A stretch of 64,000 nucleotides of DNA from Alphaproteobacteria bacterium (GTDB taxonomy: Bacteria; Pseudomonadota; Alphaproteobacteria; Bin95): assembly GCA_040263875.1 (NCBI GenBank), contig JBDQJI010000004.1, positions 11,984 to 75,983 on the forward strand. The letters run 5' to 3'. The notes beneath the pieces were generated by a model. The model saw only the letters and a list, made by a program, of their open reading frames with translations. It was not told where the DNA came from and searched no databases. This document shows positions 6,232 to 59,859 of the stretch, piece after piece. Each line of letters starts with the position of its first letter. Position 1 is the stretch's first letter. A program made the position numbers and the translations under genes.

Positions 6232-7085
6232 CGTCGCATCAATTCAGCAGCATCAAATGCGCCGACATAAGAACTGGTCGCAGGGCCGGTCATGATGATG
6301 TGGCCGTCCGGACGCCACGTCATTTCCAATGGTCCGCCGAGCAGTTCAATCGTGACGTCATGGTCTGTCAGTTCGCGCCGGATACAAGCGACAGCCGCCG
6401 CGCAGGCACCAGTGCCGCAAGCCCGCGTTTCGCCAACGCCGCGTTCCCATACGCGCAGCCGCGCATGGCTTCTGCTGATCACTTGCACCACACCGATATT
6501 GGCGCGTTCAGGGAAGAATGCATGGGTTTCAAGCGCAGGCCCGAGCGTCGCCAGATCAACGGCGTCGAGGTCATCTTCGAAAAACGTCGCGTGCGGATTA
6601 CCAACATTACCGCCAACAGGGTCGCTGAGCGGTCCAAGTTCCAGCGGCATATGCAGCGTATCGCAGGCTTCAGCGACAGGAATTTCCTGCCATTCTGTCT
6701 TCACCTTGCCCATATCAACCGCGACCAGGCCATCGGGTGCTGCGCGCGAGTCCAGAAGACCAACGACGGTTTCAATGATCGCACGCTCATTACCGGTCTC
6801 CGCCATAACGCGCTTAGCGATACAGCGCGTGCCGTTACCGCATGCTTCCACCTCACCGCCATCGGCGTTGTAGATGGACATGAACGCATCAGCGCGTGGG
6901 TCTTGCGGTGGTCGGATAACGAGCATCTGGTCAAAGCCAATGCCGCGCTTACGGTCTGCAATTGCGGCGGCCAAGGCTTGGTCCGGGCGAAAGGCGCGCG
7001 TCCGCGCATCAATAACTACAAAGTCATTGCCTAGGCCGTGCATTTTCACAAACGGCGTCATCATGGGGTCGCGCATATCCTGCAT
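6228..7085 (-). CDS. dapF: Diaminopimelate epimerase
   Basis: 285 aa. KMHGLGNDFVVID, with the catalytic cysteines in ACGNGTRC and ACGTGACA. The start may be one of the internal Met codons a few residues in. Confidence 0.95.
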   Translation of the reverse strand: MQDMRDPMMTPFVKMHGLGNDFVVIDARTRAFRPDQALAAAIADRKRGIGFDQMLVIRPPQDPRADAFMSIYNADGGEVEACGNGTRCIAKRVMAETGNERAIIETVVGLLDSRAAPDGLVAVDMGKVKTEWQEIPVAEACDTLHMPLELGPLSDPVGGNVGNPHATFFEDDLDAVDLATLGPALETHAFFPERANIGVVQVISRSHARLRVWERGVGETRACGTGACAAAVACIRRELTDHDVTIELLGGPLEMTWRPDGHIIMTGPATSSYVGAFDAAELMRR

Positions 7086-42207: not shown

Positions 42208-42816
42208 CTAGTTCCGCCAGGAAGCGTAGCCATCACCACGCTGACGGCGTGGGCGCTCAGCCACAGTATTCCGCCGGTTATCTACCCGATTGTATCGACG
42301 GTCAGTCTGCGCACGAGCGCGACGGCGGTCTAACTCGTTTTGGGCACGGGCGCGACGACGATCAAGCTCGTCTTGAGCCCGTGCACGACGACGATCAAGC
42401 TCATCCTGAGCCCGTGCGCGGCGGCGGTCCAATTGATCTTCAGCGCGTGCACGGCGACGGTCATTGTTGGAATAGCCACTTCGGTGATTTGAACGTGGGT
42501 TTACATAATCCCGGCGCACCGTATGGCCATGATAGGCATGATTACGACTACCACGATGGCCGCGATTATAGTGGCTATGCTTATTGGATTTCCGTTTGTA
42601 ATGGCCATGATGACCGTGATGACGGCGCTTCGGCGCACGATGGGCATGATGACCATCATCGTGGGTGGCGGCGATTATCAGTCCACCAATGGCTGCGCCA
42701 ATAATGATCGGCCCAATCAAGTCGTTGCCGTCAGCTTTAGCGCTGCCAGCCCCAACGACGCTTGATGCGCCCAGCACGAGCGCCGCGATTGCGGCGGTGA
42801 AGGTTCGTTTCAGCAA
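42208..42816 (-). CDS. Hypothetical exported/membrane protein: signal peptide, glycine-zipper helix, His-rich block and Arg-rich 11-aa tandem repeats
   Basis: TTG start with GGGAGAG 5 nt upstream. Signal-like MLKRTFTAAIAALVLGASSVVGAGSAKA, then LIGPIIIGAAIGGLIIAA. His-rich THDDGHHAHRAPKRRHHGHHGHYKRKSNKHSHYNRGHRGSRNHAYHGH, followed by RRRARA[EQ][DN][QE]LD repeated about 4.5 times. No family that I recognise. Confidence 0.6.
   Translation of the reverse strand: MLKRTFTAAIAALVLGASSVVGAGSAKADGNDLIGPIIIGAAIGGLIIAATHDDGHHAHRAPKRRHHGHHGHYKRKSNKHSHYNRGHRGSRNHAYHGHTVRRDYVNPRSNHRSGYSNNDRRRARAEDQLDRRRARAQDELDRRRARAQDELDRRRARAQNELDRRRARAQTDRRYNRVDNRRNTVAERPRRQRGDGYASWRN
42311..42462 (-). repeat. 33-bp tandem repeat, about 4.6 copies, in frame within the 42208..42816 CDS
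   Basis: Units at 42311-42343, 42344-42376, 42377-42409 and 42410-42442, plus a partial unit to 42462. Each encodes A-RRRARAQDELD-like 11-mers on the minus strand. Confidence 0.9.
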
Positions 42817-49291: not shown

Positions 49292-49347
49292 TTAGCGCTC
49301 CATTCGTGGCCTGCTTGGGGTCTCAATTCAATCAGGAGAAAACAGTT

Positions 49348-49707
49348 ATGGCTATCCAACGCATCGACGTCACTGAAGGTCCCGGCCCCCGCATGAGCCG
49401 CTGTGTCGTGAATGGCGATATGGTTTACGTGTGCGGTCTCGTCGCCAAAGATTTCTCAGCCGACATCACCGGCCAGACACAAAGCATCGTGGACACAATC
49501 GACAGCTACCTGGCCAAAGCTGGCACAGATAAATCCAAGCTGCTCACAGCCCAGCTCTGGATCACAGACATGGCCAACTTCAAAGCTATGAACGCAGTCT
49601 GGAATGATTGGGTCGACCCCAAGAACCCACCCGTCCGCGCCTGCATCCAAGCCGGCCTCGCCCGCCCTGAAATCTTGGTCGAGATCATGGTTACAGCGGC
49701 GAAGTAG
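49348..49707 (+). CDS. RidA/YjgF-family protein
   Basis: 119 aa from the ATG at 49348 (AGGAGA 8 nt upstream). VYVCGLVA, MNAVWNDW, PVRACIQAGLARPEILVEI. Confidence 0.85.
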   Translation: MAIQRIDVTEGPGPRMSRCVVNGDMVYVCGLVAKDFSADITGQTQSIVDTIDSYLAKAGTDKSKLLTAQLWITDMANFKAMNAVWNDWVDPKNPPVRACIQAGLARPEILVEIMVTAAK

Positions 49708-49723
49708 GGGCCAGCCTTGATCA

Positions 49724-49776
49724 ATCGCAACGCACAGAATATCTTTAAATATCTTTGACATTCTGTGCGTTGCGAT
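49724..49776. promoter_or_regulatory. Perfect 17-bp inverted repeat (candidate ParD operator and/or ridA terminator) overlapping a promoter-like element
   Basis: ATCGCAACGCACAGAAT (49724-49740) and ATTCTGTGCGTTGCGAT (49760-49776) are exact reverse complements separated by 19 nt (ATCTTTAAATATCTTTGAC, with ATCTTT repeated). TTGACA lies at 49755-49760, GCGATAC at 49772-49778, GGAG at 49779-49782 and the parD ATG at 49790. Confidence 0.5.
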
Positions 49777-49789
49777 ACGGAGCTCGGTT

Positions 49790-50050
49790 ATGACCAAACC
49801 CATGAATCTAAACGTTCGCGTCGGCGGCGCGCTAAAAGACCATCTGGTGGCTCGAATTAGTGACACTGGCGACTACGATAATGCCAGTGAGTATGTCCGC
49901 GACCTCATTCGCCGAGACAAGGAACGCGTGGAATTTACGACATTCGAGGCGAAACGTGCAGCACTTCAAAAAGCATTTGCGTCACCTGATGCAGATTATA
50001 TGCAGATTACTATGGCGGATATCATTCGACAGGCGACGCTGCCTGAGTAA
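49790..50050 (+). CDS. parD: Type II antitoxin, ParD/CopG ribbon-helix-helix family
   Basis: 86 aa. MNLNVRVGGALKDHL (RHH strand-helix), YDNASEYVRDLIRRDKE. One-nt overlap (TAATG) with the toxin gene. Confidence 0.85.
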   Translation: MTKPMNLNVRVGGALKDHLVARISDTGDYDNASEYVRDLIRRDKERVEFTTFEAKRAALQKAFASPDADYMQITMADIIRQATLPE

Positions 50051-50382
50051 TGCAGCCATCCTATTCTCTTTCATCAACCGCCCAGCGACGGCTAATTGAG
50101 ATATACCGATACAGCGTTAACCAATGGGGCGAAACACAAGCAGAATCCTATTTGGCGGATTTCTATGAAGCCTTTGAAAGAATCACAGACGGAACACTGC
50201 AAGGCAGGTCAATTGAACCGGGTTATGGCGTCATTGGACGCTGCGCTCCCTGCGGCAAGCACAGAATATACTGGAAAATATCAGCCGATGGGACTGTCCA
50301 CATCGCTGAAATTCTGCATGAGCGAATGGATATCGGCGACAGACTAGCCAAATCTGCGGCGCTTCGGCACCCAAACGACTGA
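50050..50382 (+). CDS. parE: Type II toxin, ParE/RelE family
   Basis: 110 aa. YSLSSTAQRRLIEIYRYSVNQWGETQAESYLADFYEAFERI and HRIYWKI...VHIAEILHERMD are typical ParE features. Confidence 0.85.
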   Translation: MQPSYSLSSTAQRRLIEIYRYSVNQWGETQAESYLADFYEAFERITDGTLQGRSIEPGYGVIGRCAPCGKHRIYWKISADGTVHIAEILHERMDIGDRLAKSAALRHPND

Positions 50383-54328: not shown

Positions 54329-55497
54329 CAACCAGCCCCCAGGATCAGTGAACAATGTGAGGACATGATGCCGCCTTCATTATGCACAAAAGCCCGCTCT
54401 CGCTTCGCGACCTGGCGGCCTGCAGCATCGCCGCGTAACTGGCGCGCGGCCTCAACAATGGCGAACAATCCACCTGCCGCCCCTGCATGCGCATGGCTCA
54501 ACATGCCGCCATGGGTGTTGACTGGGAATTTGCCGTTGAAATTGGTTTCTTTTGACAAGAACAATTCCCCAGCTTCTTCTGGCGTGCCAAACCCAGCCTC
54601 AGACATCTCGATCAACGGGACGGGTGTAAAGCAGTCATAAAGCTCAGCAAAATCGATATCCTTCGGGCTGAGTTCTGCCATCTTGTATGCAGCAGCACCG
54701 GATTGCTTGCCACCGAACTCCGTCAGGCTGGGCGCGGCCATAATGTGTTCATGGGTGTGAAACTCACCAAACCCTAGAATATCAACGGGCTGCGATGGCA
54801 TATCCCGCGCCCGGTCCGCCGCCGTAATGATCAGCGCACCGCCGGCGTCTGAAATCAGGCAGCAGTCCAATATGTTCAGTGGTGCTGCAATGGGCTTAGA
54901 TGCCAGCACGTCCTCAATCGTAATGGGTTGGGACATGTGGGCATTCGGGTGCAAGCCAGCATGATAGCGCCCGTTTACGGCGACGGCCGCCATCATTTCA
55001 CGGGTAACGCCAGTTTCATGCATCAGCCGGTTTGCGATCATGCCGTAGAAAGCCGGGATCAGCGGGCCATAGATCTTCTCGTAATATGGATGGCCAACGC
55101 TGGAGAGTGCTGCAACGGCTTCATCCCGCGTCTGCCCTGTCGCGCGGTTTTCACCAACAACGACCAATACGTTCGTCGCAACCCCTGTCGCTACAGCCTG
55201 GACGGCATGGTTCACAAGCGCGGCTGGCGTAGCACCTCCAAGCACCATGGATGAGAGATAACTTGGCTGAATGCCTAGATATTCAGCAACGACCGTGCCG
55301 AACATGAAATAAGGCTCTGTCATCGAATAGGCTGTTAGCAATCCATCAATGTCACTGGGGCGAAGGCCCGCTTCATCCATAGCTTGCTTTGCTGCTTGTG
55401 CGGCAAGGCCGATACCAGATTGACCGGGAACTTTGCCGATTTCAGATTCGCCAACGCCAGCAATGCTGGCAGCACCCGAGAGCATGTGTTTCGCCAT
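54328..55497 (-). CDS. Thiolase-fold protein (SCP2-type / lipid-transfer-protein-like thiolase)
   Basis: 389 aa. Thiolase-like N- and C-domains (NTHGGMLSHAHAGAAG near the C-terminus), paired with an upstream DUF35 gene as is usual for this class. Confidence 0.8.
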   Translation of the reverse strand: MAKHMLSGAASIAGVGESEIGKVPGQSGIGLAAQAAKQAMDEAGLRPSDIDGLLTAYSMTEPYFMFGTVVAEYLGIQPSYLSSMVLGGATPAALVNHAVQAVATGVATNVLVVVGENRATGQTRDEAVAALSSVGHPYYEKIYGPLIPAFYGMIANRLMHETGVTREMMAAVAVNGRYHAGLHPNAHMSQPITIEDVLASKPIAAPLNILDCCLISDAGGALIITAADRARDMPSQPVDILGFGEFHTHEHIMAAPSLTEFGGKQSGAAAYKMAELSPKDIDFAELYDCFTPVPLIEMSEAGFGTPEEAGELFLSKETNFNGKFPVNTHGGMLSHAHAGAAGGLFAIVEAARQLRGDAAGRQVAKRERAFVHNEGGIMSSHCSLILGAG

Positions 55498-55500
55498 GGC

Positions 55501-55935
55501 TCAACCCTCCTCCCGCAGGAATTGGGGCACATTTATGCCCTCACCACGCGCTTCGAAGACACAGCGGACTTTGTCCCCAATCGCGACATCAAGTGCGTTT
55601 GGACCGATGATATTTGTCATCATCCGCGCGCCTTCCTCCAGATCAATCAAGGCGACGACAAAAGGTGTCAGCGGCCTGTATCCAGGCTCTGACGCGCGGT
55701 GGACAATGCTGAAACTATGCACTTCACCGAGGCCAGACGCTTCAAACCATTCAACATCCGCAGCGTCCCAGGTGGCAGGCGATACCTGGCGCGGATAGAA
55801 CCAGACTTGGCCGCTCTTCTGGCAACGCTGAAGCAGGAGCCTGCCTTCCGCAGCCCCATCCCAATAAGGCGCATTGTCAGCATTCCGTTGCGGGACAGGC
55901 AGAGGTGGATCAGGAGTATAAGCTTGTTCAGTCAA
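55501..55935 (-). CDS. DUF35 OB-fold/Zn-ribbon protein (thiolase partner)
   Basis: 144 aa. APYWDGAAEGRLLLQRCQKSGQVWFYPR followed by an OB-fold segment. TTG start with AAGGAA 8-9 nt upstream. Confidence 0.8.
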   Translation of the reverse strand: MTEQAYTPDPPLPVPQRNADNAPYWDGAAEGRLLLQRCQKSGQVWFYPRQVSPATWDAADVEWFEASGLGEVHSFSIVHRASEPGYRPLTPFVVALIDLEEGARMMTNIIGPNALDVAIGDKVRCVFEARGEGINVPQFLREEG

Positions 55936-55979
55936 CGCATCAGTTCCTTATGTTAAGTACAAAAGGATATGATGCCGTA

Positions 55980-56327
55980 TCAGCTCTCGCTAGAGCCAGC
56001 GCCGTAAGCAGCGGCAAGAGCACGGTCCCGTAGATCCTGCGCCCAGCGTGTAAGGCCATAGGGATGCGCGAACACTGCCCAGTTCACATCAGCAGCAGCC
56101 AGAAGCGCTTGCCAACCTGAATCATCCAGAGCCAAAGCTTGCGTGACGGCGATTTCTTCGGCCAACTGCGCCGCTTCAGCCTTGCTAGCCTCTGTTAGAA
56201 ACTGAACTGCGGGTGCCGGCCAAGCGGCATTCCCCTCATCCCAGTCCTCATTGGCATAGGCCTTCAGAAGCTGCCACAGCATGCCATCTTCAGAAAGTGA
56301 AGGGAGTGGCGCGCTACTTCTCGACAT
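55980..56327 (-). CDS. Putative immunity protein (CdiI-like, aromatic-x3-DWD family)
   Basis: 115 aa, acidic, no signal peptide. LWQLLKAYANEDWDEG near the N-terminus resembles the YFHQDWD-type signature of proteins annotated as contact-dependent growth inhibition immunity proteins. Its ATG lies 14 nt inside the 3' end of the toxin-like ORF. Confidence 0.6.
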   Translation of the reverse strand: MSRSSAPLPSLSEDGMLWQLLKAYANEDWDEGNAAWPAPAVQFLTEASKAEAAQLAEEIAVTQALALDDSGWQALLAAADVNWAVFAHPYGLTRWAQDLRDRALAAAYGAGSSES

Positions 56328-56928
56328 AGGCCGTTAGCAAGCGGTAGCTCTGCTTGCCTTTGCTTGTCCATTTTGTGAGCACCACTGCGGCCGTGTTGCC
56401 TTGGCGCCGATCACCACCACGATAGGCGATACGGCCAATTGGTTTGTCAAAGAAACGGCGGAGGGCTAAACGTCGTTTGCTATCATTGTCCGCGAGCCAT
56501 CTTTGGACGCGCGGCTTGTTCGGCTTATGATTGATAGTGCGCACAATCGCGATAGCCGCCGATTCCGTATCAAAGAAGCCTGACGCTACGCTCTTGTTGT
56601 CGCGTTTAATCCGGTCTTCCAGATCGTCATAAGACTTGCCCACGTGGCGGGCGATGGTGTGCCCCCGATGTTTACCGCCTTCTTGCGCTTTCAGCCATCG
56701 AACCGCCTGGGCGACGGCATCATTCCGGCTGCGGACAGGTGTTACAGACCGTGCTTCAGCAGTTTGCTGCCGCGCCTCGACCGGCGGCGGCGCAGCGCTC
56801 TCCACCATCCCTTTGGCAAGTCGCGGATCGTCTCCCTGGAGGAAGGCGATCAGCAGCGCTACCCCCAGAGCGATGAAGGATAGGATTATGCGTTGGGCCT
56901 TAATATCAATGTTGAAGCGTTTAAACAC
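56314..56928 (-). CDS. Membrane-anchored protein with a C-terminal bacterial RNase A-superfamily (CdiA-CT-like) toxin domain
   Basis: 204 aa, GTG start. One N-terminal hydrophobic helix (IILSFIALGVALLIAFL) and a Pro/Ala/Gln linker. The domain then reads GGKHRGHTIARHVGKSYDDLEDRI...SGFFDTESAAIAIV...RWL...IGRIAYRGG...AAVVLTKW...SYRLLTAYVEK. Confidence 0.65.
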   Translation of the reverse strand: MFKRFNIDIKAQRIILSFIALGVALLIAFLQGDDPRLAKGMVESAAPPPVEARQQTAEARSVTPVRSRNDAVAQAVRWLKAQEGGKHRGHTIARHVGKSYDDLEDRIKRDNKSVASGFFDTESAAIAIVRTINHKPNKPRVQRWLADNDSKRRLALRRFFDKPIGRIAYRGGDRRQGNTAAVVLTKWTSKGKQSYRLLTAYVEK

Positions 56929-56949
56929 TGTTCGCCCTGCGCCTATTGA

Positions 56950-57456
56950 TTAAAGCTTGCCGTATGCCGCCGTGAACCCACGGAGCGATACATTCAGATT
57001 AAGCTTCTGACGGCGAATATTCTGCATGCCAATCACGGCTTTTGATCCACGCTTCATGGCATTGACCTTACCGGCTGAAAGCTGGATCTGCGCAAGGCAG
57101 CCGCCTTTAAGGCAGAATTCGAAATTCACGCGGTCAGCCTTGCCGCCATCAATACCGAATGTAAGGCCTGGACGCAGCCAAACGCCCAGCGGCGCCCGCA
57201 ACGATAAGATAACGCCGGATTGATTGGGCGGCTTCGCGACAACGACTTCCATAAGCGGGTTGCCGTTTTTGGGATCTTTTACGTTCTGAACCATGCGGCA
57301 GAGACGACCAGCCTGCGGGTTCTGTACGCATTCAACGGACCAATCGCCACTTTGCGTCCGCTCGACATTCTGTTGCGCTTGCTGTGCCGAAGCTGGGAGC
57401 GCGCCAATGGAGCTGGCGATAAGGCCTGCGGCCAATGCAATTATGACTTTACGCAT
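56950..57456 (-). CDS. Invasion-associated locus B (IalB) family periplasmic protein
   Basis: 168 aa. Signal peptide ending ALPASAQ, then GDWSVECVQNPQAGRLCRMVQNV and FEFCLKGGCLAQ, both typical IalB motifs. Confidence 0.8.
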   Translation of the reverse strand: MRKVIIALAAGLIASSIGALPASAQQAQQNVERTQSGDWSVECVQNPQAGRLCRMVQNVKDPKNGNPLMEVVVAKPPNQSGVILSLRAPLGVWLRPGLTFGIDGGKADRVNFEFCLKGGCLAQIQLSAGKVNAMKRGSKAVIGMQNIRRQKLNLNVSLRGFTAAYGKL

Positions 57457-57609
57457 ATGCGAAGCCTTCCCTCATAGGAACTTAGGTGTTCATTCGGCGG
57501 GACACTGCCTTGAAACGCCCCTTAGATGCAAGACCAATCCGCATGATCCGTTCCATTATTACAGCGAATTAAAGACTACTGCTTAAGGTCAGGACCCATA
57601 AAATTAGTC

Positions 57610-58734
57610 CTAAGGGTGCTGGCGGCCAAATCGGATATGTGGGAAGGCGCTGAACTCACTTGGGCTGTACACTGGCGGCGCCGAAGTCAGATAGCTTGAA
57701 CCCAATTCCGCAAAGGACTGAACGCCGAGCAGGCCAAGCGCTGACTCACATTCACGCTCCAACAACTCCAACATGCGGACCAAGCCATCGATTCCGCCAG
57801 CGGCTAGCGCATAGCCTTGCATTCGGCCAATGCCAACAACGTCCGCACCCAAGATCATCGCTTTCACAATATCTGTACCGCGACAAAATCCGCCGTCGAT
57901 AGCGATTTCTGCTTTGCCGCCGACGGCCTCAACGACCTCTGGCAGCACATCAATTGCGCCCCGACCGAAGTCCAACTGACGGCCACCGTGGTTTGAGACA
58001 TAGATGCATTCGACGCCATATTCGACGGCTTTAGCAGCGTCCTCGGCTGTCGCGATGCCTTTCAGGATTAACGGCATGTCATGCTTTTCTTTGAAGCGCG
58101 CGACCTTGGCCCAATCAAAACCAGACTGGAATTTCTGTCCACTACCGCCCCGGCGGCGCCCTGCTGGCAGATATCGCCGTACAATGTCCCGCTCGCGCCT
58201 GGAATAAACAACGGTATCCACAGTGATGCAGAAAGCGCGATATCCGGCGTCCTTAGCGCGGACGGCGGCATCATCAACAAAAGCATCGTCACCGCGCACG
58301 TAAAGCTGGAACAGCGTTGGCTGATCGACGCTAGCAGCAACGGTCTCCATATCCGGCTGGCAGACGGAGCTCAGCATATGGTCCACGCCAAATGCATCAG
58401 CCCCTTTAGCCGCCGCGACACCACCGCCTTCGGCAAAACTCTCCAAGCTTCCAATCGGCGCCAGGAGGACCGGAATACGCAGATCACGGCCAAGAAAGCG
58501 CCCCGTTACGTCAGATGTAGTGACGTCCTGCAGGACCCGGGGCCGGAACGCCAAACAATCAAGCGCCAAGCGATTACGAAGATATGTGGTCTCAGTTTCC
58601 GCCGCACCCGCCAAGTAATCCCAGGTGGTATCTGGCAAATTAGCGCGAGCGCGTTCTGGGAACTCCTGGAGTGTGAGGAATTCAGGCGTAATATATCCAC
58701 CACCGGTTAGGCTGGATTGAGTCAGTTTGGTCAT
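57610..58734 (-). CDS. FMN-dependent alpha-hydroxy-acid dehydrogenase/oxidase (L-lactate dehydrogenase / glycolate oxidase family)
   Basis: 374 aa. PILLAPIG-like VLLAPIGS, LILKGI, VSNHGGRQLD, DGGFCRGTDIVKA. Confidence 0.88.
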   Translation of the reverse strand: MTKLTQSSLTGGGYITPEFLTLQEFPERARANLPDTTWDYLAGAAETETTYLRNRLALDCLAFRPRVLQDVTTSDVTGRFLGRDLRIPVLLAPIGSLESFAEGGGVAAAKGADAFGVDHMLSSVCQPDMETVAASVDQPTLFQLYVRGDDAFVDDAAVRAKDAGYRAFCITVDTVVYSRRERDIVRRYLPAGRRRGGSGQKFQSGFDWAKVARFKEKHDMPLILKGIATAEDAAKAVEYGVECIYVSNHGGRQLDFGRGAIDVLPEVVEAVGGKAEIAIDGGFCRGTDIVKAMILGADVVGIGRMQGYALAAGGIDGLVRMLELLERECESALGLLGVQSFAELGSSYLTSAPPVYSPSEFSAFPHIRFGRQHP

Positions 58735-58758: not shown

Positions 58759-59859
58759 TCAAATCGAATCCACAGCTTCGATTTTGCCCGGCAGGGAAAA
58801 CTTCACAAGAGCCCCCGGACCAGCCTCTGGGGCGCGCGCAGTTATCGTGCCGCCACGGGCGTTTATCAGACGCCTGACACCCAACAGCCCAAACCCAGCG
58901 CCTTTGCGCATCTTACCTTCCTCTAGCAATGCGCCCGCATCGCCTTGAAAGCCAGTGCCGTAATCACGAACAGAGAACTCAATCACTTCGCTGCCATTAG
59001 CCACCGCAGAGATCGTCAACTTCTTTAACTTGTCTCCAGAATGCCTGAATGCATTATCAATCAAGTTTCGCAATACAATCTGCAATGCCGTTTCGTCTGC
59101 AGTGATGCGAAGATTGTCTGCCTGCACATCATGCGCGCCGGTTGGGTCAAGCATAACCATAACCCTTGAACAAAGATCACGTAGGCCAAAGGTACTGAGC
59201 TTCGGCTCTAAATCTGTCGCCTGCGCGTGAGCGAGCAGGTCTGTAATCAGCGTCTTCGCATTGGCCGACACATTATCGAGCATCTTGATGATTTCGATTT
59301 TACCATCTTTATGATCCTCAAACCCTTCGCGTAGCTGGTCGAGTAGCATCGTGATCTGCCGCATTGGCGCCCGCAGATCATGGGCGGCCAAGTTCACAAA
59401 ATTTTCGATCTCACGCATTTGCGTTTCCGCATCGATCCGCGTTTCCCGTAGCGTTTGCTCGCTTGAGATATCAGCAGAGGTCCCTACGAGAAAAACTACA
59501 TCGCCTTCGTCGTCAAATACGGGCTCCAAGTGCGTCCGCACCGTGCGCTTCTGACCACGCAGCGGCAGTGTTAGTTCGTAACTGACAGGGCGTCCGCCGA
59601 AGATTGTCTGGACATGCCGGGCATAGGCGAGTGATCCGAAACGTCCGCCGTAAATTTCTTCGGCGGTCTTGCCAATCACATCTTCAACAGCAAAGCCTGC
59701 AACATCACAGGCAAAAGCATTGAATGCGGCATAGACAGGTCGCTGGCTGTTATCAACCTTTAGTACGAAGATAGGCGACTTGACACAATCGAATGCGTCA
59801 AACGCAGCAGCGTCCATTTCTACATTCACATTCAACGATTCAGATGCGGCCATCAGCAC
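58759..59859 (-). CDS. Cytoplasmic PAS-domain sensor histidine kinase
   Basis: 366 aa. PAS-like N-terminal half, H-box LAAHDLRAPMRQI, N-box LIDNAFRHS, G-boxes RDYGTGF and GAGFGLL. Confidence 0.85.
   Translation of the reverse strand: MLMAASESLNVNVEMDAAAFDAFDCVKSPIFVLKVDNSQRPVYAAFNAFACDVAGFAVEDVIGKTAEEIYGGRFGSLAYARHVQTIFGGRPVSYELTLPLRGQKRTVRTHLEPVFDDEGDVVFLVGTSADISSEQTLRETRIDAETQMREIENFVNLAAHDLRAPMRQITMLLDQLREGFEDHKDGKIEIIKMLDNVSANAKTLITDLLAHAQATDLEPKLSTFGLRDLCSRVMVMLDPTGAHDVQADNLRITADETALQIVLRNLIDNAFRHSGDKLKKLTISAVANGSEVIEFSVRDYGTGFQGDAGALLEEGKMRKGAGFGLLGVRRLINARGGTITARAPEAGPGALVKFSLPGKIEAVDSI

Follow-up and report, generated by a model that had tools for sequence, protein, structure and literature searches.

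The stretch of DNA analysed here (64,000 nucleotides of contig JBDQJI010000004.1 from an alphaproteobacterium; hereafter the window) carries two overlapping genes, one for a predicted metal-independent ribonuclease (RNase) belonging to the bacterial RNase A-like family, the other for its putative cognate inhibitor. Membrane-anchored RNase A-like nucleases accompanied by CdiI_2-type inhibitors are already a recognised class, to which the window adds a helix-anchored alphaproteobacterial member. We think it probable that the nuclease is a resident envelope enzyme, tethered to the inner membrane and degrading RNA in the periplasm, with a cytoplasmic inhibitor that provides barstar-like self-protection; the pair does not appear to be a strain-polymorphic weapon that needs a delivery machine. 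Both open reading frames (ORFs) lie at the coordinates and on the strand given in an initial annotation made from the sequence alone, and its 14-nt overlap, quoted peptides and numbering of H95, R106, T199 and Y201 are all correct (Table 1).

The nuclease domain and its predicted inhibitor

Membership of the RNase A-like CdiA-CT family, proposed in that annotation, was borne out by profile and PDB sequence searches and by the fold of an AlphaFold model. PF18431 (RNAse_A_bac, the bacterial CdiA-CT RNase A domain) matches residues 89–201 over profile positions 1–112 of 113, scoring 75.7 bits (gathering cut-off 27; E=6.7e-21). This similarity is far above chance, and the domain is carried by all 29 nuclease homologues that we collected (22 of 194–224 aa and seven shorter). 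A sequence search of the PDB returned one significant match, the CdiA-CT of Yersinia kristensenii (5e3e_B, E=3.5e-5). Our AlphaFold2 (AF2) model of the nuclease, built from an alignment of 26 homologues, has a mean predicted local distance difference test score (pLDDT) of 81, rising to at least 90 in nine of the eleven ten-residue blocks from residue 91 on. Searching the PDB with this model, Foldseek places 5e3e_B at the top (E=3.6e-9, template modelling (TM) score 0.87, root mean square deviation 2.2 Å, 118 columns), the next match being an unrelated one at E=0.095. The model has the kidney-shaped α+β, RNase A-like fold of 5E3E chain B.

Alignment sets H95, R106, T199, Y201 and R94 of the window protein against H175, R186, T276, Y278 and R174 of the Yersinia toxin (CdiA-CT-Ykris). 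The first four are the catalytic residues named by Batot 2017 (PMC5435912), whose mutagenesis showed the importance of His175, Arg186, Thr276 and Tyr278. In our family alignment (26 sequences) G89, H90, R94, H95, R106, T199 and Y201 are invariant, and the domain as a whole is basic (pI 10.8). By homology, we assign it the same fold as CdiA-CT-Ykris and the same His/Arg/Thr/Tyr active site. A further conserved segment lies ahead of the Pfam match, at residues 67–88, with R68, A71, A75, W78, E83 and G85 conserved at 90% or more and an AF2 helix at residues 68–81. It falls outside the crystallised CdiA-CT domain, which begins at Gly168; similar leaders ('WL.QQE..GGH' or 'DLRRDE..GGH') precede the domain in many other short family members, and the helix may be specific to stand-alone exported forms.

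The protein encoded directly 3′ of the RNase gene, in a position kept in every orthologue, is acidic (pI 4.2 in the window), with neither a hydrophobic leader nor a hydrophobic segment. Its own match to PF18593 (CdiI_2) reaches 20.6 bits, below the cut-off of 26.7 (E=7.8e-4, profile positions 5–88 of 91); 22 of 25 inhibitor orthologues match the same profile at E<=0.01 (best E=1.8e-7), and a precomputed PF18593 match exists for four orthologues. The family context is similar, the directly downstream ORF being CdiI_2 at 44 of 53 other RNase_A_bac loci. A profile built from the ORFs that follow the nuclease gene elsewhere in the family retrieves the CdiI of the crystal structure (5e3e_A, E=3e-14), and hhalign aligns the window inhibitor family with the 53 downstream ORFs at E=4.7e-5 (probability 68%). 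BLAST and jackhmmer searches started from the inhibitor among the downstream ORFs gave no link to the large CdiI_2 cluster, to which it is tied by profile–profile comparison and Pfam only.

The most conserved inhibitor motif spans codons 17–30, where L17, W18, Q19, L20, K22, Y24, A25, E27, D28, W29 and D30 are invariant across the 25 orthologues. Its segment Y24-A-N-E27-D28-W-D30 aligns with Y17-F-N-Q20-D21-F-E23 of CdiI-Ykris, so that D28 corresponds to D21. In the Yersinia complex D21 makes salt bridges to His175 and Arg174 and a hydrogen bond to Thr276, and Q20 touches Tyr278 (PMC5435912 Table 3). The aromatic-x3-DWD signature to which the initial annotation had drawn attention is this active-site-capping Y17..Q20-D21 segment, and we predict that the motif caps the nuclease active site.

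An AF2 model of the inhibitor is all-α, with six helices (pLDDT 80). Foldseek found nothing for it in the PDB at E<3.7 and did not list 5e3e_A. The inhibitor-family profile, run against PDB sequences, did not retrieve 5e3e_A either; its matches were designed TIM barrels with an 'AYRSDDWRD' repeat, which we discarded as spurious, and single-sequence phmmer against the PDB gave nothing meaningful. The missed fold match may reflect limited sensitivity for small helical proteins. The description of the downstream ORF as CdiI-like is upheld by the orthologue matches and the motif alignment; the window protein itself scores below the cut-off, and the fold comparison with 5e3e_A did not bear it out. 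Overall, the product is best described as a putative divergent CdiI_2-type inhibitor, with good evidence from sequence and context but without confirmation from the fold.

Export anchor, locus and family context

The N-terminus of the RNase has the features of a signal anchor. Residues 1–13 are basic (net +3) and lead into a 17-residue hydrophobic helix at residues 14–30 (best Kyte–Doolittle score 3.0 in a 17-residue window and 2.48 in a 19-residue window), and the 15 residues that follow carry a net charge of -1, an acidic flank preceding the Pro/Ala/Gln linker. Mean flank charges in 22 full-length orthologues are +3.6 on the N side and -1.5 on the C side. AF2 models a helix at residues 9–30 (pLDDT about 90) whose sequence is kept in orthologues (L16, S17, A20, L21, I27 and L30 at 90% or more); G32, a possible -1 cleavage residue, is not conserved among them. 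By the positive-inside rule we infer an N-in/C-out signal anchor, and the flank charges, the hydrophobic helix and its conservation all support the same prediction in the initial annotation. Beyond the helix, the tether has pLDDT below 50 for residues 37–64 and differs between orthologues in length and sequence. Twin-arginine (Tat) export was considered and rejected, as the position preceding the conserved Arg is variable (K, R, S, N or G) and the helix does not begin until about 10 residues further on. Since the window encodes LptD and LolA, the organism should have an outer membrane; the RNase anchor itself would sit in the inner, not the outer, membrane.

Nine orthologous loci (L001–L006 and L078–L080), with nuclease identity down to 52%, share one gene order: HAD hydrolase, LonC-like protease, flavin mononucleotide-dependent dehydrogenase (FMN_dh), IalB, RNase and inhibitor. 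They differ only in the genes beyond the inhibitor. Relative to L001 and L002, the ratio of nonsynonymous to synonymous substitution rates (dN/dS) is 0.046–0.049 for the RNase at dS 0.43–0.47, 0.095–0.111 for the inhibitor and 0.009–0.064 for neighbouring genes; the RNase is under strong purifying selection, with dN/dS about 0.05. GC content and third-position GC content (GC3) of the pair equal those of the neighbours, on which ground we rejected a recent horizontal acquisition. Of the hallmarks of polymorphic toxins (strain diversification, cassette replacement and orphan modules) none is seen: the same families occupy the site in all orthologues, and the locus holds no orphan or extra toxin/immunity cassettes. 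One sublineage has lost the pair. In L003 (contig CBFIAF010000009.1, 6001–6946) the RNase gene is interrupted by the stops W144* and Y195* and the inhibitor gene by Q19*, the two having decayed together. The truncated 143-aa product of this type (P0008) was seen on 14 contigs, which shows the joint pseudogenisation to be genuine and speaks against an error of sequencing.

No CDI (contact-dependent growth inhibition), type VI or type VII secretion system, Rhs or other delivery gene was found among the 24 ORFs scanned in the 64-kb window, in agreement with the initial annotation. These ORFs are ordinary chromosomal genes (LptD, UvrB, LonC-like protease, LolA, NhaA, S15 peptidase, MoaA, NAD kinase, MscS, histidine kinases and dehydrogenases), and the largest ORF in the window, of 785 aa, encodes a Lon-like protease. 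The CDI architecture, in which the domain ends a very large CdiA that also has a two-partner secretion (TPS) domain and is encoded beside cdiB, is absent. The case that the annotation itself had named as damaging, an orphan module displaced to a position behind cdiA or rhs, did not materialise in the nine orthologous loci: none has a cdiA, cdiB or rhs gene upstream of the RNase, and the short anchored architecture recurs in them without CDI genes.

A census of the family, in which one genome per species was scanned, found the domain at 77 loci. The ORFs concerned are mostly of 130–450 aa, with signal peptides, lipoboxes, membrane anchors or a shared ~150-aa N-terminal domain; only four (L042, L048, L054 and L076) exceed about 700 aa when counted from the first start codon. 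Hint-type pretoxin domains occur in L042 and L075, and the end of an Rhs-like core in one truncated ORF (L033). A profile search of 1.84 billion representative proteins returned 2014 clusters at E<=1e-3. The 149 nearest representatives have a median length of 194 aa, only five being longer than 300 aa, and 131 have a hydrophobic leader (signal peptide, lipobox or membrane anchor), which in 35 includes a lipobox. The closest out-groups of the window clade, P0028 and P0029, are lipoproteins, P0029 being followed by a CdiI_2 gene in housekeeping surroundings. The short exported architecture is thus not unusual; small Sec-exported, lipid- or helix-anchored proteins dominate the nearest relatives.

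These counts, 131 of 149 with a leader, contradict the premise of the initial annotation that the domain is confined to the tips of giant polymorphic toxins, as does Batot 2017 (PMC5435912), where membrane-anchored lipoprotein homologues with immunity genes were described and argued to be RNA scavengers, not competition toxins. With that premise falls the puzzle of the missing delivery system. Because the nearest relatives are mostly small exported or anchored proteins with inhibitors, the domain alone is not evidence of bacterial warfare.

Two further groups stood out in the census. RNase_A_bac proteins of ~270–300 aa from Rhizobium, Agrobacterium, Sphingomonas, Rosenbergiella and Contendobacter (L017, L024, L028, L038, L045, L046, L049, L055, L056, L060, L063, L070 and L072–L074, all with ORF ends near 6360) have in common a ~150-aa N-terminal domain, 'LSPxQLAAVL...NRxWGG...TPEPTxxTKxGG', without a Pfam match; they are probably the 'putative T6SS effector' class of Batot 2017. 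A 189-aa ORF from Tatumella has a related inhibitor gene and lacks their N-terminal motif. In Maritalea (L039, L062 and L064), signal-peptide RNase_A_bac proteins extend 119–188 aa beyond the nuclease domain, and the next gene is a shared ORF of ~314 aa in place of the CdiI_2 gene, which may encode a different inhibitor or partner.

Known systems and the function of the pair

The CdiA-CT/CdiI pair of Yersinia kristensenii ATCC 33638 (PDB 5E3E; Batot 2017, PMC5435912) resembles the window pair in PF18431, in fold (TM 0.87), in the equivalents of H175/R186/T276/Y278, in the immunity family (CdiI_2, putatively so in the window) with the capping Asp motif and in the adjacency of nuclease and immunity genes. 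The Yersinia domain, however, is the tip of a very large CdiA that is exported by CdiB and delivered to neighbours, whereas the window RNase is a protein of 204 aa with only a signal anchor and a linker, its pair being non-polymorphic and without CdiA/CdiB. The nuclease domains are about 25% identical, and the window inhibitor is too divergent from Yersinia CdiI for the Pfam cut-off or for a fold match to 5E3E_A.

The RNase A-like lipoproteins of Bacillus cereus/anthracis (NF041883; Batot 2017) are likewise stand-alone, exported and membrane-anchored RNase_A_bac proteins of ~170–200 aa, with an adjacent probable immunity gene, no delivery system and little variation between isolates; they have been proposed to scavenge RNA and not to serve in competition. 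They are anchored through a lipid, on the Cys of a cleaved lipobox, at the surface of a single-membrane cell, the window protein by a predicted transmembrane helix with a Pro/Ala linker. As this helix would sit in the inner of the two membranes of an alphaproteobacterium, the window enzyme would be confined to the periplasm. It is not a member of NF041883 (NCBIfam RNase A-like domain-containing lipoprotein), scoring 60.9 bits against a cut-off of 200, and it contains no Cys and hence no lipobox Cys; L014, a locus from Bacillus, reaches 216 bits and encodes the lipobox LLYGC.

Barnase and barstar of Bacillus amyloliquefaciens combine a Sec-exported basic RNase with a small acidic cytoplasmic inhibitor that plugs its active site, and illustrate how self-protection alone can account for a cytoplasmic inhibitor of a secreted RNase. 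The window pair would follow the same logic, as an analogy only: both folds are unrelated, and barnase is released to the medium, not tethered. Escherichia coli RNase I (rna, RNase T2 family), a non-specific periplasmic RNase thought to act in RNA salvage, is also a periplasmic resident of a double-membrane bacterium, but it has an unrelated fold, is soluble and has no dedicated inhibitor gene next to it.

Ribocin (RbcN, PA14_21120/PA3318) from Pseudomonas aeruginosa, reported in 2026, is a stand-alone nuclease of RNase A fold with a signal peptide; it cuts eukaryotic 28S rRNA, at helix 69, and how it is delivered is not yet understood (PMC13189344). Compared by description only, it is similar to the window RNase in its stand-alone form, Sec signal, RNase A-like fold, His/Thr/Tyr residues and independence of a dedicated secretion system; unlike the window RNase, it is soluble in the periplasm, with bacterial ribosomes left uncut, no inhibitor gene reported and no Pfam domain. 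NF041883 was tried as the Ribocin family and rejected, since it represents the Bacillus lipoprotein class.

In the reading that we favour, the N-terminal helix would act as an uncleaved Sec/signal recognition particle (SRP) signal anchor and the nuclease would be inserted co-translationally. With the helix so read, the N-terminus would be cytoplasmic, and a flexible tether of ~35 residues would hold the RNase domain in the periplasm. The inhibitor, which has no export signal, would stay in the cytoplasm; the 14-nt overlap would keep its synthesis in step with that of the nuclease, and it would cap, on the cytoplasmic side, the active site of nuclease molecules that fold ahead of export or are not exported at all. 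In the envelope, the RNase would break down RNA or oligonucleotides that enter the periplasm. This may serve to salvage nucleotides or phosphate, or possibly to clear foreign RNA.

We judge a resident envelope enzyme the likeliest explanation because the pair is passed on vertically, keeps its chromosomal position, has native base composition and evolves under purifying selection, an argument parallel to that of Batot 2017 for the membrane-anchored Bacillus lipoprotein homologues. Fixed position, purifying selection and native composition, together with the barnase/barstar logic, also speak against the suggestion in the initial annotation that a cytoplasmic inhibitor implies delivery of the nuclease into the cytoplasm of another cell.

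Several points weigh on the other side. The choice between a signal anchor and a cleaved signal peptide was made by hand rules only, and in the window sequence alone signal peptidase might cut at L30-Q31-G32. The need for an inhibitor of an enzyme that is exported co-translationally is explained only by analogy. A periplasmic RNase meets little environmental RNA, so the case for salvage is weaker than for a lipoprotein on a single-membrane surface. With both genes pseudogenes in the L003 sublineage, the pair must be dispensable. The window inhibitor falls below the Pfam cut-off for PF18593, and neither Foldseek nor the family profile recovered 5e3e_A. Finally, the example of Ribocin shows the cytoplasm of another organism to be within reach of an exported relative that lacks dedicated machinery (PMC13189344).

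An interbacterial toxin is the strongest competitor, though we hold it to be unlikely. It would be exported by Sec, released by cleavage of the linker, in outer-membrane vesicles or on lysis, and taken up through an unknown importer, with the inhibitor serving as kin immunity. The nuclease and immunity families are those of proven CDI toxins, the disordered linker could be a cleavage site, the inhibitor is conserved despite export of the nuclease, and plain Sec export without further machinery is a recognised, standard route for polymorphic toxins (Zhang 2012, PMC3482391). But the strain-level diversification of such toxins is absent (dN/dS about 0.05), the chromosomal position is fixed in all orthologues, and orphan modules, receptor-binding or translocation domains and delivery genes are missing from the ORFs scanned. 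The anchor would be in the inner and not the outer membrane, conservation of the transmembrane helix sequence suggests that the helix is retained, and Batot 2017 argued likewise against a competitive role for the lipoprotein class.

Somewhat less probable still, in our estimate, is a broader proposal: that the tethered RNase is a genuine effector, for attack or defence, without a dedicated secretion machine, clipped off its tether and carried in outer-membrane vesicles to bacteria or grazers, much as Ribocin gets into the host cytoplasm, or else a periplasmic sentinel against foreign RNA, with the inhibitor as kin or self immunity. If this were true, it would define a widespread class of machinery-independent RNase effectors, comprising hundreds of 50%-identity clusters in several phyla.

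That the nuclease targets eukaryotes, grazers or hosts, in the manner of Ribocin seems to us very unlikely. The layouts are alike, an export signal at the N-terminus being followed by a C-terminal domain of RNase A-like fold with catalytic His/Thr/Tyr, and Ribocin acts without the secretion systems tested (PMC13189344). Yet Ribocin is distant, being described as lacking an annotated domain and as about 15% identical to CdiA-CT-Ykris; it spares bacterial ribosomes, and its paper mentions no immunity gene, whereas the conserved cognate inhibitor here implies activity on the producer's own RNA. The window RNase also appears membrane-anchored and not soluble. Ribocin does show that exported relatives of the fold can have unexpected targets, and the conserved, position-fixed alphaproteobacterial clade, under purifying selection, offers a clean case for deciding between a salvage enzyme and some other role.

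We give even less credence to the reverse topology, in which the RNase domain would be cytoplasmic and the pair a membrane-associated type II toxin–antitoxin or abortive-infection module. A two-gene layout of toxin and inhibitor with overlapping reading frames, a cytoplasmic inhibitor and the joint decay of both genes in L003 would suit such a module. The flank charges of the 22 orthologues (+3.6/-1.5), however, predict the opposite orientation and so not a type II system, and the closest out-group relatives are lipoproteins (P0028 and P0029) and signal-peptide proteins, which are necessarily exported. PADLOC models gave zero matches to defence families for the RNase, the inhibitor and IalB, and the surroundings are neither a mobile element nor a defence island. 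Least credible of all is an inert remnant, the orphan toxin/immunity cassette of a lost CDI or Rhs locus: orphan modules are common near polymorphic toxin genes and both genes carry stop codons in L003, but the window gene is full-length and has a start codon of its own, it encodes a conserved export anchor, a linker and intact catalytic residues, it is under purifying selection, and none of the nine orthologous loci has cdiA or rhs upstream.

Features and neighbouring genes

Table 1. Positions of the gene pair, its parts and the adjacent upstream gene in the window
Feature	Position	Strand	Description
RNase A-like nuclease gene	56314..56928	(-)	204 aa, GTG start; predicted N-terminal signal anchor, disordered linker, C-terminal RNase domain
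Hydrophobic helix IILSFIALGVALLIAFL	56839..56889	(-)	Codons 14–30; predicted uncleaved signal anchor, N-in/C-out
Disordered tether rich in Pro/Ala/Gln	56731..56838	(-)	Codons 31–66; variable
Conserved helix before the Pfam domain	56665..56730	(-)	Codons 67–88; R68..W78..E83-G-G
RNase A-like catalytic domain	56326..56664	(-)	Codons 89–201; H95, R106, T199, Y201 plus R94
Overlap of RNase gene end and inhibitor gene start	56314..56327	(-)	14 nt, ATGTCGAGAAGTAG
Inhibitor gene	55980..56327	(-)	115 aa, ATG start; acidic, putative divergent CdiI_2-type
Most conserved inhibitor motif LWQLLKAYANEDWD	56238..56279	(-)	Codons 17–30; predicted active-site cap
IalB-family exported protein gene	56950..57456	(-)	PF06776 E=3.9e-34; 21 nt upstream of RNase gene

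The 14-nt overlap is identical in loci L001, L002, L004, L078 and L080, and the inhibitor has no alternative start codon between M1 and the conserved L-x-E-D-G-M-L-W segment; translational coupling of the inhibitor to the RNase through this overlap is possible. The IalB gene may be co-transcribed with the RNase gene. A scan for promoters and terminators over 55400–57800 gave nothing above shuffle expectation on the coding strand, so the operon structure rests on gene spacing, and an Rfam scan of the whole 64-kb window returned zero matches. We rejected IalB as a general partner of the RNase, since it lies upstream in all orthologous loci but not at more distant family loci; as the whole LonC-like/FMN_dh/IalB block keeps its order, the adjacency may be mere conserved gene order. 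On the same strand, 3′ of the inhibitor, come a ChsH2-type OB-fold/zinc-ribbon gene, a thiolase-like ORF and a 262-aa ORF, the first of these three being among the 24 ORFs run against profiles.

Other parts of the window yielded minor observations. A 202-aa ORF at 42208–42816 (-) has no Pfam match and an N-terminus resembling a signal peptide; a 136-aa ORF at 49456–49866 (-), also without a Pfam match, may be spurious, being antisense to a RidA/YjgF-like ORF at 49306..49707 (+). The PAS/HATPase histidine kinase gene at 58759–59859 (-) is hypervariable amid near-identical surroundings: its product is 92, 88, 54 and 69% identical in amino acids to those of L001–L004, against 89–99% for the flanking LonC-like and FMN_dh proteins, and the gene is missing from the equivalent position in L005, L006, L078 and L080. 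At 49790..50050 (+) an 86-aa ParD-like ORF precedes a ParE toxin gene (50050..50382 (+), PF05016 E=1.5e-11), which in the related locus L003 is present as fragments only. The ParE start codon opens on the last base of the stop codon of the preceding ORF, the classic layout of a type II toxin–antitoxin system.

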